From sequence record PP400782: a DNA stretch of 64,000 nt; one strand, given 5' to 3'. The notes beneath the pieces are model-generated. The model saw only the letters and a program-made list of their open reading frames with translations. It was not told the DNA's origin and ran no database searches. Origin of the DNA: Escherichia phage FL31. Below are positions 2,728 through 30,325 of the stretch, one piece after another. A program made the position numbers and the translations under genes. Position 1 is the stretch's first letter, and the number at the start of each line of letters is the position of its first letter.

Positions 2728-3690
2728 TTATTTCCAAGTCAGTTCGCAGGTCAGTTGAAGAAGCATATACATAACATGTAATTCAATATTACTTGCTAAT
2801 CCATGAAACTTATTGTTTTCGCCTGCAATTTCATAAAGCGAAATAATACTTTTACCAGGTGCAACTTGGTCATAACATTCTGAAACTAATTTATCGATGA
2901 ACCATGAATAATCTGCGGCGTATTTTGGAGCTAATGCACGAAGCTGTTTGATATCTTTGTTCTTCATTGCTTCGATAACATCAGAGACTGTGCCACGGTC
3001 ATTAGTTACGATAGACAAAATACCCGCATCAAGAACACCTTTAGCCGAGTACTGGTCTAATTGACCAATTGTACGACGAAAGTCCGGGAAGTTCTTTTTA
3101 ACCAGAGCTGCAACAACTTTCATATCAGCGATTTCGATATTTTCGTTCTTACAGATTTCAACCATACGATGAATCATTTTCTTCATCATTGAGATTTTAT
3201 CTTCTTCGGTTGGACGTCCGAATTCGATAACTCGACAACGACTACGTAACGGTTCGATAATTCCATCGATGTTGTTGGCAGTAATAATAATAGAACAGTT
3301 ACTAGAGAATTCTTCCATGAATGTACGAAGGTGACGTTGTGATTCAGCGAGGCCACTACGGTCAAATTCATCAATAACAATAACTTTAGGCTTGCCTTCC
3401 ATTGAGACTGAACGAGCGAATGCAGTTAATGGACCACGCACAAAATCAATCTTACAATCAGAACCGTTGACGAACATCATTTCGGCGTTGATGTCATTAC
3501 ATAATGCTTTTGCTACGGTTGTTTTACCTGTACCAGGAGAAGGAGAGTGCAAAATAATATGAGGAAGTTTTCCTTTAGATACTAAAGACTTGAATGTTTC
3601 ATGGTCATACGCAGGCAGAATACATTCGTCAATGGAAGAAGGACGATATTTCTGTTCTAGAATGTGTTCTTTGGAATTGATAGTAATCAT
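2728..3690 (-). CDS. 44: Clamp loader large subunit gp44 (AAA+ ATPase)
   Basis: 320 aa; Walker [11 protein letters not shown], Walker [12 protein letters not shown] motif ([10 protein letters not shown]); T4 gp44-like. Confidence 0.95.
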
Positions 3691-3716
3691 GTAATTTTCC
3701 TCATTATCATTAAACT

Positions 3717-3732
3717 GGAGGATTTCTCCTCC
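3717..3732 (-). promoter_or_regulatory. Intercistronic hairpin between genes 45 and 44
   Basis: ggaggatttctcctcc; on mRNA GGAGGA-GAAA-UCCUCC (GNRA-type loop). Confidence 0.4.
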
Positions 3733-3765
3733 ATAATCGTATCACAATAAACGTAAAGCTTTGAC

Positions 3766-4452
3766 TTAGAAGTCGTGAGTAGAATCGGCTTCCATCGCAA
3801 TAACATAACTTACTTGAGAGCTTTCAAACTTAGCTGCAACTTTATCACCAGCTCCCCACAACATTACTTTATAGTTACCTGGCTGGATTTTCATATTAGC
3901 CATATTGATTACGAAGTTAAAGTTATTAGAACCGTCATAATCAGTAAGAGTCAAAGAATACTTAGGACGAGTTAGTCCGGAATCTTCAACTTTATTATAG
4001 CCATTGATAACAATTTTACCATCTTTATTTGTAATAGCAATTGTATCAATCTGAAGTCCACGTGAAACTCGAAGCAATTGTTGAAGGTCTTCAGCTTTAA
4101 TTTCAGTAATCACAGAAGCCACTGGGAATTGAATTGGCTTATTAGGAAAAACAATGGTGCTCTTGTCGGCAGCAGGCCAATAAACTGTGGAACGTGTATC
4201 TGCAATTTTAATATTGCCATCAGTATGCATTGAAATTTCGGCATCATCAGACACTAGACTCAAAATGCTTAAGAAGCTATTCAAATCATAAAGTGCTACG
4301 TCAAAATCAATTTCATCAGAGATATTTGCTTCCGCATAAGTGGTGCCATTAACTGCACGAGTCATAATAAATTTACCTTGGCTCAGCAGAATGCCAGAGT
4401 TAATAGAAGCGAAGTTTTTCAGAATATTTACGGTTTCACGGCTAAGTTTCAT
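3766..4452 (-). CDS. 45: Sliding clamp gp45
   Basis: 228 aa; MKLSRETVNILKNFASINSGI...ADSTHDF matches recalled T4 gp45. Confidence 0.95.
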   Translation of the reverse strand: MKLSRETVNILKNFASINSGILLSQGKFIMTRAVNGTTYAEANISDEIDFDVALYDLNSFLSILSLVSDDAEISMHTDGNIKIADTRSTVYWPAADKSTIVFPNKPIQFPVASVITEIKAEDLQQLLRVSRGLQIDTIAITNKDGKIVINGYNKVEDSGLTRPKYSLTLTDYDGSNNFNFVINMANMKIQPGNYKVMLWGAGDKVAAKFESSQVSYVIAMEADSTHDF

Positions 4453-6759: not shown

Positions 6760-8444
6760 GAGGCTTTCATTACAGTAAATCGTCCAACTTTGCTCATTTG
6801 AAGATGTTGTCCATAAGCTTGTGGGTCATGGTCTCTGTGACTAATTATAAACACGTTTGCATCGGTTAGAGAGTTAAGAATTGTTGAAATAGCTTTAATA
6901 CCTTCAGAATCAGTCGCGGAATCCATGACTTCGTCCATAATTAATGTATTGATTCTAACACCAGAGACCTTTTCAGCAATATCTCGCCATGTAAACAACA
7001 ATGCGATATCGATACGTGCCTTTTCACCTTGACTAAATGAAGCATAACTGAACTCTTCACGGCCACGTGATTTTATAGATTCATTGAATTCTTCGTCAAT
7101 AGAAAACACGTAATCAGCTTCCATGATTTTAAGATAATGGTTAATCTGCTTGTTGAACAGAGGCACATATTTTTTAATGATAGCACCTTTAATACCAGAA
7201 TCTTTTAACATATCTGTGATAATACCACGATGGTATTTTTCAAGAACGATATCCGATTTTGTTTTAATGATTTTATCAAGTTCTTTTTGAAGCAAAGCTA
7301 TCTCATCGGCATGGTCGATAAATTCTGCTGAGGCTTGCTCTATTGCAGCTTTAACTTTCTTAGCTTTATCAATAGTGGCAATCATTGCTTGTTTCTTGGT
7401 ACGAATATCAGATGCAAGGTCCTGCTTAGTCTTAACATTAGCTCTATATTCATCAACTAGGACACTCAGATTATCTCTGTGACAGGTAAGTTGCTCGAAT
7501 GAGTGATTACATTCATGAAGCTTATCGGTAATCTTAGAGACAATAGGGTCACCCTGGTGCAATTGTGATGCACAAGTAGGACATGTGCCACCGTCATGAT
7601 ACATCTTAATAACTTTGTTATATGAGTCGATTTTAGATTTAATCAAGAATGCTTCTTGTCCTATCTTGTTGAATGCCTCAGTAGGGTCTTCATCAAGAAC
7701 GATATTAAGTAGTCGCTCATTAGCTTCTTCGATTTCTGCCTTTAATGAACGAGCTTCTTTGGCTAGGTCGTCATACATATTCTGTAGACGCGCTACATTA
7801 TCACCAGATAATTTCTTTTGACGTTCGATATTCTCGTTATAAATCTTAATTTGTTGGATAATACCATCTTTCTTGGCATCGAGAACTTGTCCCTGGGAAT
7901 TAAGTTCTCGAACTTGAGACTTATTGATTTTATCCATTTCAGCGAGTGTGCCGACTTCTAAAAGGTCTTCGACAAGTTTTCTACGAGCAGGGGTGCTAAG
8001 AGCCATGAAAGGGGTATACCCTGCCGTCCCAAGCACAACGATTTGTTTAAAAGACGCGTATGACATTCCGATGCTACGTTCAAATTCTTCTTGGAAGTCA
8101 CGACTGCTGGCAGATTCATCGAGACGAACACCGTCAACGGAGATTTCGAAAATATTGGGCTTTTGGCCACGTTTAATGAAGTATTTTTTATCATCGAATT
8201 CCATCCAAAGCTCAACTAAGAGCTCTTTCTTGTTCGTGCTATTAATGATTTGTCCTTTCTTAACATCACGAAATGGTTTACCGAAAAGTCCGAAAGTAAT
8301 GGCTTCTAACATCGTAGATTTACCACCGCCATTTTTACCGGTGATTAAGGTCTTTTGGACTTTATCTAATTGGATATCGATAGGATTCCCACCTACCGAC
8401 ATGATGTTTTGATAACGAACACGATTTAATTTAAATGATTTCAT
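6756..8444 (-). CDS. 46: Recombination endonuclease subunit gp46 (Rad50/SbcC-like ATPase)
   Basis: 562 aa; Walker A GKNGGGKST, coiled-coil middle, CPTC zinc hook, Walker B LIMDEV; T4 gp46-like. Confidence 0.95.
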   Translation of the reverse strand: MKSFKLNRVRYQNIMSVGGNPIDIQLDKVQKTLITGKNGGGKSTMLEAITFGLFGKPFRDVKKGQIINSTNKKELLVELWMEFDDKKYFIKRGQKPNIFEISVDGVRLDESASSRDFQEEFERSIGMSYASFKQIVVLGTAGYTPFMALSTPARRKLVEDLLEVGTLAEMDKINKSQVRELNSQGQVLDAKKDGIIQQIKIYNENIERQKKLSGDNVARLQNMYDDLAKEARSLKAEIEEANERLLNIVLDEDPTEAFNKIGQEAFLIKSKIDSYNKVIKMYHDGGTCPTCASQLHQGDPIVSKITDKLHECNHSFEQLTCHRDNLSVLVDEYRANVKTKQDLASDIRTKKQAMIATIDKAKKVKAAIEQASAEFIDHADEIALLQKELDKIIKTKSDIVLEKYHRGIITDMLKDSGIKGAIIKKYVPLFNKQINHYLKIMEADYVFSIDEEFNESIKSRGREEFSYASFSQGEKARIDIALLFTWRDIAEKVSGVRINTLIMDEVMDSATDSEGIKAISTILNSLTDANVFIISHRDHDPQAYGQHLQMSKVGRFTVMKAS

Positions 8445-27418: not shown

Positions 27419-27601
27419 TTATAGTGAATTCACGTAGTCAATGAGTTCTTGTTCTTTCCTGTCAAATGATTCCATCAATGCTTGATATTCTTCGTCCGTC
27501 AAAGGAGCATATTCATCATACGCATTGGTGGCTGCTTGCTCATCCAATAGGTCATGGATAAGTTCAAACAGTTTAGTTTTCTCTTCTTTAGTCAATTTCA
27601 T
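27419..27601 (-). CDS. Hypothetical small acidic protein
   Basis: 60 aa ORF. Confidence 0.45.
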   Translation of the reverse strand: MKLTKEEKTKLFELIHDLLDEQAATNAYDEYAPLTDEEYQALMESFDRKEQELIDYVNSL

Positions 27602-27819
27602 TTAGGTTCACCTTCTTTAACGAAATCTGGGTAAGGGTAAAATCCTGAGTAAAACCCTTCACCTTTATGATTGCTACAACCTTTGTTCGAACAGTAACAC
27701 CAATAATCAAAATCACAAGCCATTTCGTCATTGCATAAAGCAAAAACTACAGGCCATTCGCATTTTTCGCATTTAGCACCTGTAAGAATTTTTGTTTGGC
27801 TCATAACAATGGTTCCCAA
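27598..27819 (-). CDS. Cysteine-rich small protein (putative zinc finger)
   Basis: 73 aa; CEKCEW...CNDEMACDFDYWCYCSNKGC. Confidence 0.5.
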   Translation of the reverse strand: MGTIVMSQTKILTGAKCEKCEWPVVFALCNDEMACDFDYWCYCSNKGCSNHKGEGFYSGFYPYPDFVKEGEPK

Positions 27820-28298
27820 TCAACAATCACAATTTCTAGTTTAGTGGAATACGTATCTAAAATCTCTTCGATGACATCCCAGTTTCCACCACCAATACCT
27901 GCACCAATTCTTGGCATATAAATTACAGGCTTTGTTATCTTATTTTTTCCGAATTCATTTAATTCTATTATACAATTCATTAAAGCAGAGTACTCAAAAT
28001 TAGGTCCCGGCTCAAACTGTGTATAAAGATTAAAGCAATAAGCTTTATGGGTCTTAAAATATTTTTCATAAACCGAATAAGTCCCGAGTTTAGACTCGTC
28101 TCCGAATTCGGTTTGAAGTTTATCGGCTTCTAAAATTTTTGGATAAGCCTTTGCCAATTGACCTGCTACACCGGCACCCATTGTATGAAAACAATTGCAC
28201 CCATGAGCAATATTATTACCTTTAGAAAACAGGGCGACAATATCGCCCTTGATATAGTTTTTAATCACTTGCTGCAAGTCCTCTAGTATAAGAGTCAA
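27801..28298 (-). CDS. Macro-domain-like protein (putative ADP-ribose binding/processing)
   Basis: NIAHGCNCFHTMGAGVAGQLAKAYP and PRIGAGIGGG motifs typical of macro domains. Confidence 0.5.
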   Translation of the reverse strand: MTLILEDLQQVIKNYIKGDIVALFSKGNNIAHGCNCFHTMGAGVAGQLAKAYPKILEADKLQTEFGDESKLGTYSVYEKYFKTHKAYCFNLYTQFEPGPNFEYSALMNCIIELNEFGKNKITKPVIYMPRIGAGIGGGNWDVIEEILDTYSTKLEIVIVDWEPLL

Positions 28299-29675: not shown

Positions 29676-29891
29676 TTATTGATAAAACGGAGTTAAAGCC
29701 CAAGATTCTTTAGATACTATATTGGCGAAACGCCTCATCTCTTCGATTTGGCGTCGACGCTGATCAGCATAGTCTTCTTCGCCTTCTTCCTTACAATCTT
29801 CAAGGTCTTCTTCAAGATACTTTAAGTATTCACTACAAATTTTGTTGACCTTTTCTTGAAAGTCCAATAACCCAGTAATAGTAGAAGCCAT
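29676..29891 (-). CDS. Hypothetical small acidic protein
   Basis: 71 aa ORF. Confidence 0.45.
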   Translation of the reverse strand: MASTITGLLDFQEKVNKICSEYLKYLEEDLEDCKEEGEEDYADQRRRQIEEMRRFANIVSKESWALTPFYQ

Positions 29892-30325
29892 TAGTATTTT
29901 TCCTCAGGTCGAAATACCGCACGACATGCCCACATGCTGGCTTCTTTTAGATGTTGCTTAGCATACTTAAGAGCCTGCACTGCATCCATATCTTCTTTGG
30001 TTTGTTGCTCTGTTTCATTTTCTTTCAAGATATATGCTTCTTCAATCAGAGCATCAAACAACAATCCAAGACGGACTTCGGCATCTTTAATAGCGTTCAC
30101 TTTACCGATTTTATCATCGGTATGCGGCTTGTAGCCTTTGATGTCTTCAATCGACATAAGGAATTTCCTCATCGGTGGCAAGGTCATATTCGACAAATTG
30201 GATAGGCTTATTAATACCATATCCACGTACAGTGATATCAGTTGTCGGGTAGTTTCCAGTAATATCACCCATTCTAAATGATTCAATGAATGATTGCTCG
30301 CCTGGGCAAGTAAACCAGGCGGCAA
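29891..30325 (-). CDS. Hypothetical protein (start uncertain)
   Basis: 144 aa track ORF overlaps the 30147-30371 ORF; internal Met (MSIEDIKGY...) may be the true start. Confidence 0.35.
   Translation of the reverse strand: MPPGLLAQASNHSLNHLEWVILLETTRQLISLYVDMVLISLSNLSNMTLPPMRKFLMSIEDIKGYKPHTDDKIGKVNAIKDAEVRLGLLFDALIEEAYILKENETEQQTKEDMDAVQALKYAKQHLKEASMWACRAVFRPEEKY

Follow-up and report, generated by a model that had tools for sequence, protein, structure and literature searches.

A stand-alone macrodomain without the DarG/TARG1 lysine in Escherichia phage FL31: a probable anti-DarT2 counterpart of T4 Tk.4

The macro gene of phage FL31

This report concerns a small macrodomain gene on the minus strand of Escherichia phage FL31 (sequence record PP400782). 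The gene lies in a stretch of 64,000 nucleotides, called the window below, and all positions are those of the window. It is located directly downstream of vs on the same strand, in the tk-regB cluster, as is tk.4 in phage T4. It was established here that the product has a macro fold, that the gene is orthologous to T4 tk.4, and that the active-site residues of the family are conserved. It is likely that the gene encodes a functional anti-DarT2 DNA ADP-ribosylglycohydrolase, that is, an enzyme which would clean phage DNA of the ADP-ribose attached by the toxin of the bacterial DarTG2 defence system.

Gene order and orthology

The 4.5 kb surrounding the macro gene is ~98% identical to many genomes of Mosigvirus (RB69-like T-even phages), the group to which, on nucleotide sequence, the window belongs. 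The gene is identified by position and alignment as the orthologue of T4 tk.4 (adfM), because the proteins of the T4 cluster match the window in the sequence they have in T4: rI, rI.1, tk, tk.2, the macro gene, vs, vs.1, regB, vs.3, vs.4, and vs.6. The identities to T4 by tblastn are 53% for rI, 64% for rI.1, 81% for tk, 48% for tk.2, 84% for tk.4, 67% for vs, 83% for vs.1, 78% for regB, 40% for vs.3, 66% for vs.4, and 94% for vs.6. With 131 of 155 residues identical (~85%), 146 of 155 positive, and no gaps, the macro gene is among the best conserved genes of the tk-regB stretch relative to T4. PHROGs also support a thymidine kinase, a valyl-tRNA-synthetase modifier, and the RegB endoribonuclease as neighbours. 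The original prediction, made from the letters of the window, had placed the gene in a "tk-regB early region", and this context is right (tk, vs, vs.1, and regB by tblastn against T4 and by PHROGs).

The start and stop codons of the macro gene overlap codons of both neighbours. A dedicated promoter or terminator was considered for the gene and rejected; a consensus scan returned 13 promoter-like sites where 18.1 were expected from shuffled sequences, and none of them is convincing upstream of the gene. The macro gene is probably co-transcribed with vs and regB and translationally coupled.

The start codon

The minus-strand open reading frame (ORF) 27801..28298 encodes 165 residues when read from a TTG codon at 28298, and its translation contains the two glycine-rich motifs HGCNCFHTMGAGVAGQLAKAYP and PRIGAGIGGGNW, both as originally predicted. 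The ORF is real, but the predicted 165-residue product is not the likely one, which has 155 residues and begins with a GTG codon at 28268. Read from this GTG, the product aligns end to end and without gaps with T4 Tk.4, which also has 155 residues. The tblastn alignments of T-even orthologues outside the group of this phage begin at residue 11 of the 165-residue ORF. In T4, a stop codon directly 5′ of the tk.4 ATG closes the corresponding frame, and a GAGGA stands 11 nucleotides ahead of that ATG. The TTG start was rejected on the length and alignment of T4 Tk.4, the orthologue starts, the upstream stop in T4, and the spacing of the GAGGA, and GTG 28268..28266 is most likely the true start. 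It overlaps the end of vs (GTGATTAA), whose TAA stop codon is 28263..28261. The extra ten codons probably arise by chance from the vs reading frame that overlaps them, since the 155-residue Tk.4 alignment, the orthologue starts at residue 11, and the T4 upstream stop all speak against them. Residue numbers below refer to the 155-residue product, with GTG as residue 1. The features of the gene are collected in Table 1.

Table 1. Positions of the macro gene of phage FL31 and of the features in and around it
Feature	Position in the window	Strand	Remarks
Macrodomain protein coding sequence, T4 tk.4 / adfM orthologue	27801..28268	-	155 amino acids plus stop codon 27803..27801
GTG, probable start codon	28266..28268	-	Pairs with the annotated T4 ATG; orthologue alignments start here
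Ten-codon upstream extension of the ORF, probably untranslated	28269..28298	-	Inside the 3′ end of vs
GAGGA, Shine-Dalgarno-like, 10 nucleotides 5′ of the GTG	28279..28283	-	Putative role
Residues 22-43, HGCNCFHTMGAGVAGQLAKAYP: His22, Asn25, and the first glycine-rich ADP-ribose-binding loop (MGAG, 30-33)	28140..28205	-	Conservation in 63 homologues
Residues 119-130, PRIGAGIGGGNW: second glycine-rich (diphosphate-binding) loop	27879..27914	-	Alignment with TARG1 PRIGCGLDRLQW
CAG codon of Gln84, at the catalytic-lysine position of TARG1 (K84) and DarG (K80)	28017..28019	-	Profile alignments
Codon of Asp9, IKGD motif, at the position of TARG1 Asp20	28242..28244	-	hhalign, IKGDIV against TARG1 VKGDLF
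8-bp GC-rich RNA hairpin (AGGGCGAU-AUU-GUCGCCCU) followed by GUUUUCU, codons 7-13	28231..28249	-	Terminator-like match

Macrodomain fold

The FL31 protein is a macrodomain. It had been called macro-domain-like from its motifs, and Pfam, a profile search of the PDB, an AlphaFold2 model, and Foldseek bear this out; structure prediction, which had been proposed as the check, returned a macro fold and not a different one. Pfam PF01661 (Macro), whose gathering score is 22, matched with 28.1 bits (E-value 2.2e-6), covering profile positions 2-117 of 118, and PHROG 335 matched with an E-value of 7e-67. A family profile was made from 63 homologues of 38-88% identity, whose alignment was also the input for AlphaFold2. 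Searched against the PDB, the profile matched BT1257 (2.5e-17), TARG1 (1.3e-16), SCO6735 (1.3e-14), Poa1p (2.4e-13), and DarG of Mycobacterium tuberculosis (3.1e-13) and Thermus aquaticus (1.9e-11).

The AlphaFold2 model has a predicted local distance difference test score (pLDDT) of 96.0 and a predicted template modelling (TM) score of 0.91. Strands and helices alternate in it, and the model and the Foldseek matches show a three-layer alpha/beta/alpha fold with a central mixed sheet. Foldseek found 142 PDB matches with an E-value of 0.001 or less, and the 50 that were listed consist entirely of natural macrodomains and of serine hydrolases whose design used a macrodomain scaffold. The leading ones, all with a probability of 1.00, are TARG1 (E-value 3.4e-10), Poa1p (TM 0.80), DarG (TM 0.75-0.77), BT1257 (TM 0.77), and SCO6735 (TM 0.71).

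Active site and ADP-ribose loops

The Asp of the GD motif of macrodomains contacts adenine. This Asp, in an N-terminal (K)GD motif, is present in the FL31 protein together with both glycine-rich loops (MGAG at residues 30-33 and PRIGAGIGGG at 119-128), and binding of ADP-ribose is predicted. Among the 63 homologues, H22, C26, G33, A35, D49, G62, N80, Y82, Q84, P119, I121, G122, and G124 are invariant. Near-invariant are N25, G8, M30, and G31 (at least 90%), as well as T83 and W130; G128 is conserved in at least 90%.

The catalytic centre differs from those of DarG and TARG1. In three independent profile alignments (hhalign, hmmsearch), NLYTQ84 pairs with YLITK84 of TARG1 and NFPTK of DarG, and Gly126 stands at the position of TARG1 Asp125 (hhalign, hmmsearch). 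The lysine of T. aquaticus DarG was identified as K80 by counting on the 5M31 chain, whose numbering was taken as offset by 10. N25 aligns with N23 of gp104 of phage PhiKZ (hhalign). The residue pairing was taken from the profile alignments, which are mutually consistent. Two other alignments were discarded: a pairwise phmmer alignment to BT1257, in which an ungapped run left the catalytic strand off register, and a MAFFT alignment of seven sequences, in which the strand was off register by two residues. The original prediction had hinged on conserved ADP-ribose-contacting residues. This held for the glycine-rich loops but not for the catalytic Lys of TARG1 and DarG or the Asp of TARG1, which are replaced as in SCO6735.

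SCO6735 of Streptomyces coelicolor (PDB 5E3B) is a stand-alone, lysine-less, ALC1-like macrodomain, and the FL31 protein also stands alone. Gln84 would correspond to Gln85 of SCO6735, and H22/N25 to H24/N27, a His-x-x-Asn pair with the same spacing whose two residues were mutated in SCO6735. In the FL31 protein, a Gln thus occupies the catalytic-Lys position and the first strand-loop carries the His and the Asn, although the equivalence is a transitive one that runs through TARG1 and DarG. It has been reported that Q85 of SCO6735 matches K84 of TARG1 and K80 of DarG (PMC9411070). Despite having neither Lys nor Asp there, SCO6735 cleaves DarT-made thymidine-ADP-ribose more efficiently than DarG or TARG1 (PMC9411070; PMC12879935). 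The Q85A mutant is inactive, the wild type rescues cells from DarT, and a mechanism with a water positioned by Gln85 has been proposed (PMC9411070; PMC12879935). Since SCO6735 is active with Gln85 and without Lys and Asp, the missing Lys and Asp do not argue for inactivity of the FL31 protein. I infer a SCO6735-type active site, made up of His22, Asn25, and Gln84. On the other hand, the two proteins are only ~22% identical, and SCO6735 is the product of a DNA-damage-inducible bacterial gene, not of a phage.

Comparison with other ADP-ribosylglycohydrolases

T4 Tk.4/AdfM has the same length as the FL31 protein and shares all the family-invariant residues. The two differ by 24 substitutions, for example GIGKGNW in T4 against GIGGGNW in FL31, and by an ATG start codon in T4 against GTG. 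The loci also differ between tk and the macro gene, where FL31 lacks tk.1 and tk.3 homologues and has a Cys-rich ORF of PHROG 2306.

DarG (DarG2; PDB 5M31, 5M3I, and 7OMU), the macrodomain antitoxin of DarTG2, shares the fold and presumably the substrate, thymidine-linked ADP-ribose on single-stranded DNA. However, its catalytic motif is FPTK, whereas the FL31 protein has LYTQ, without the lysine, in alignments with both DarG structures. The DarG equivalog model NCBIfam NF048014, with a cut-off of 250 bits, gave 31.9 bits for the FL31 protein. The match spans only model positions 4-146 out of 338, leaving out the C-terminal DarT-binding domain. The PADLOC DarG model matched with an E-value of 9e-9, and phmmer matched DarG at ~1e-3. 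No darT gene lies beside the macro gene, whose neighbours are vs and the small PHROG-2306 ORF. Because the C-terminal half of DarG is absent, only the macrodomain itself could account for a stoichiometric inhibition of DarT2, such as that reported for SCO6735 (PMC9411070).

PhiKZ gp104 is, like the FL31 protein, a stand-alone phage macrodomain, here of a chimallivirus, and it counters DarTG2 (Cell Rep 2026, PMC13309987). Its sequence was translated from the construct in that paper. In contrast to the FL31 protein, gp104 is a close relative of DarG (phmmer E-value 9.4e-25 with DarG of M. tuberculosis, 137.8 bits with NF048014, PADLOC DarG 4.4e-39) and carries the FPTK lysine where the FL31 protein has Gln84. 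BLASTP aligns only 23 residues of the two proteins, and hhalign gave a probability of 96% over 112 columns with 22% identity. Furthermore, gp104 enters the phage nucleus, a structure that T-even phages do not have. Two non-orthologous macrodomains, PhiKZ gp104 and T4 Tk.4, have thus come to be called AdfM, each independently of the other. As the two AdfM lineages carry different catalytic residues, the comparison suggests that they were recruited independently.

Human TARG1/OARD1 (PDB 4J5R/4J5S) is the best Foldseek match, with a probability of 98.3% over 137 columns in hhalign. Its Lys84/Asp125 dyad is replaced by Gln84/Gly126 in FL31. TARG1 removes thymidine-linked ADP-ribose (PMC12879935). 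The closest solved relative by sequence is BT1257 of Bacteroides (PDB 2FG1/2AFC; 28% identity), in which a Gln likewise stands in place of the catalytic Lys (NMIGQ) and which has the loop PRIGCGLAGGKW. Poa1p of yeast (PDB 6LFQ-6LFU) is an ADP-ribose-1''-phosphate phosphatase whose chain is 20-30 residues longer. Neither BT1257 nor Poa1p has been linked to DarT. T4 AdfN (gene 30.3) follows the same strategy as that proposed for the FL31 protein, being a stand-alone antitoxin-type ADP-ribosylglycohydrolase that cleans phage DNA, but it has the unrelated NADAR fold, acts on the guanosine adducts of DarT1, and has no action against DarTG2 (PMC11825919).

A probable role against DarTG2

The functional evidence comes from T4. 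In HIDEN-SEQ, a transposon screen, on E. coli expressing DarTG2, tk.4 was the single significant match, its insertions being depleted specifically when DarTG2 was present (bioRxiv 10.1101/2025.11.20.689424). T4 became sensitive to DarTG2 when tk.4 was cleanly knocked out, and in this November 2025 preprint the gene received the new name adfM (anti-DarT factor Macrodomain) (bioRxiv 10.1101/2025.11.20.689424). Drawing a structural analogy with DarG of M. tuberculosis, its authors propose an enzyme that takes ADP-ribose off DNA. It was known that T4 without adfA and adfN stays fully resistant to DarTG2, and that the DarTG2 toxin modifies thymidine while AdfN, a NADAR protein, reverses the guanosine adducts of DarT1 (PMC11825919). 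The tk.4 result fills the gap left by this resistance. In addition, several macrodomains have the required activity: SCO6735, DarG, and TARG1 strip single-stranded DNA of thymidine-linked ADP-ribose (PMC9411070; PMC12879935), and PhiKZ gp104 removes ADP-ribose from DarT2-modified DNA in vitro, with lower activity of the N23A mutant (PMC13309987). The original prediction had offered two functions, reversal of a host toxin's mark and tuning of the phage's own ADP-ribosylation. The former is favoured by the phenotype of the ~85%-identical T4 orthologue, while nothing was found to support the latter.

The 155-residue stand-alone macrodomain most likely serves as an "orphan antitoxin" against DarTG2 defence. 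Upon infection, host DarT2 ADP-ribosylates thymidines in single-stranded DNA and thereby blocks replication of the phage DNA. The phage enzyme would hold the ADP-ribose in its two glycine-rich loops and hydrolyse the thymine-ribose bond, leaving clean DNA. Catalysis would proceed without the DarG/TARG1 lysine, and Gln84 may place the substrate for cleavage mediated by water. The protein could in addition bind DarT2 and inhibit it directly, as reported for SCO6735. I infer the enzymatic activity, this mechanism, and the transfer of the phenotype from T4 to FL31.

Several points weigh against an anti-DarT2 enzyme. The functional evidence reported for Tk.4-type proteins is purely genetic, stems from a preprint, and is limited to the DarTG2 phenotype of T4 (bioRxiv 10.1101/2025.11.20.689424). 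By sequence, the nearest solved relatives are BT1257 and Poa1p, an ADP-ribose-1''-phosphate phosphatase, and not DarG. Finally, since the catalytic Lys of DarG/TARG1 and Asp125 of TARG1 are both absent, the expectation of activity depends on the single precedent of SCO6735.

The DarTG2-sensitive phage T5 was also scanned. No Tk.4-type or DarG-type macrodomain was found in bases 1-86,000, the part covered by the scan; by the record layout, the last 36 kb hold late genes and the repeat of the left end. This absence offers a weak correlative hint of an anti-DarTG2 role for the macrodomain. It was also noticed that T5.105 (7588..8094), annotated as "Sir2 (NAD-dependent deacetylase)", matches Pfam HAD_SAK_2 (73 bits) and not SIR2; the SIR2-family gene of T5 is T5.102, two small ORFs upstream.

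Alternative explanations

The protein might instead process small ADP-ribose metabolites, acting as a Poa1p-like ADP-ribose-1''-phosphate phosphatase or an O-acetyl-ADP-ribose deacetylase that clears by-products of RNA repair or of sirtuins. Poa1p is indeed among the best matches (phmmer 1.4e-8, profile 2.4e-13, Foldseek TM 0.80) and shares His22, the residue changed in the H23A mutant of the 6lfs structure; BT1257, TARG1, SCO6735, and DarG are similar to a comparable degree. The T4 and JS98 records read "phosphatase; contains A1pp phosphatase motif", and JGI homologues are named "O-acetyl-ADP-ribose deacetylase". However, these names derive from homology alone, and many macrodomains hydrolyse ADP-ribose metabolites in vitro as a side activity. 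The RNA repair of T4 (Pnkp and RNA ligase) is not known to generate ADP-ribose-1''-phosphate, and the sole phenotype found for tk.4 is sensitivity to DarTG2. A metabolite-processing role is thus considered very improbable. A mainly non-catalytic neutralisation of DarT2 or of another NAD-dependent defence, by direct binding of the toxin or by sponging of signals derived from ADP-ribose, draws on a different observation. The catalytically dead mutants SCO6735 Q85A, DarG K80A, and TARG1 K84A remain inhibitors of DarT in vitro, that of SCO6735 being the strongest (PMC9411070), and the canonical catalytic Lys is missing from the FL31 protein. Yet the DarT-binding domain of DarG is missing as well, and PhiKZ gp104 works catalytically (PMC13309987). 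The invariance across the 63 homologues falls on active-site residues (H22, Q84, and the two glycine-rich loops); therefore, an enzyme fits better than a binder of fast-evolving toxins, and I regard a mainly non-catalytic role as very improbable.

T-even phages carry three ADP-ribosyltransferases. The macro gene might accordingly erase the ADP-ribosylation or RNAylation that Alt, ModA, and ModB place on host RNA polymerase and translation factors. These enzymes modify arginine, however, and cleavage of arginine-ADP-ribose is not known from any TARG1-class macrodomain. The location of the macro gene in an early-gene cluster would suit an eraser of the phage's own marks, as would the concentration of both macro domains and ADP-ribosyltransferases in myoviruses (PMC9503650). 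But no ADP-ribosyltransferase gene adjoins the macro gene by tblastn and PHROGs, and tk.4 insertions were depleted specifically with DarTG2 (bioRxiv 10.1101/2025.11.20.689424). Among the explanations weighed here, this eraser is the least probable.

Compatible with an anti-DarT2 enzyme is a wider proposal for the Tk.4 clade (PHROG 335). It may be a lysine-less lineage recruited apart from gp104, convergent on anti-DarT2 function through a Gln/water mechanism, and, in the manner of SCO6735 and TARG1, may even erase other marks (on protein Glu/Asp or on RNA) and so give wider protection. This proposal is tentative and, taken as a whole, rather doubtful.

A conserved hairpin and other features of the locus

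A terminator-like match was found inside the macro gene itself, namely the hairpin listed in Table 1. In T4, the 20 nucleotides of the region are the same. JS98 (Dhakavirus) retains the stem, as does JK32 (Krischvirus), where GUC has become AUC and a G.U pair has become A-U; in Klebsiella phage Roth68 the stem is lost. The hairpin could be an element of mRNA stability or attenuation, or a by-product of the conserved Gly-Asp ... Val/Ile-Ala codons.

Between the tk.2 homologue and the macro gene lies the PHROG-2306 ORF (27598..27804, minus strand), which encodes a Cys-rich product of 68 residues; an ATGA overlap joins it to the stop codon of the macro gene. T4 tk.3 had no tblastn match in the window, and tk.1 had a single weak match elsewhere in it. 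In the interval from tk.2 to the macro gene, the window is ~209 bp shorter than its closest relatives, which carry one extra small ORF. The vs.4 orthologue (66% identity to T4, PHROG 717) is located at 29891..30154 on the minus strand. T4 Vs.4 is presumably Acb2, the sponge that counters CBASS (cyclic oligonucleotide-based antiphage signalling systems). If so, two counter-defence genes would lie within 2.5 kb of each other.

Relatives of the FL31 protein were found by tblastn in ~2,800 phage records. Macro domains occur in 41% of myoviruses (PMC9503650). Public records already name the gene "macro domain protein", "phosphatase", "Tk.4; contains A1pp phosphatase motif", or "hypothetical protein". 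In Escherichia phage vB_Eco_NicPhage, a shortened coding sequence of 126 residues (3511..3891) starts from an internal Met of the MGAG loop and is labelled "cyanophages only". The neighbouring vs is often mislabelled "valyl-tRNA synthetase".

Implications

The finding is already known in its two parts, since the gene has been annotated as a macrodomain and the anti-DarTG2 phenotype of the T4 orthologue is in a preprint. The value for the FL31 gene is thus confirmatory: the annotation adfM (anti-DarT2 macrodomain) can replace "phosphatase" or "hypothetical protein". As the T-even AdfM lacks the DarG/TARG1 lysine and looks SCO6735-like, the mechanism of DarG or PhiKZ gp104 should not be carried over to it untested. 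DarTG systems in pathogenic E. coli, Klebsiella, and M. tuberculosis block phages by ADP-ribosylation of DNA. A phage with a working Tk.4/AdfM should plate on DarTG2 strains, which bears on the choice of therapeutic phages.

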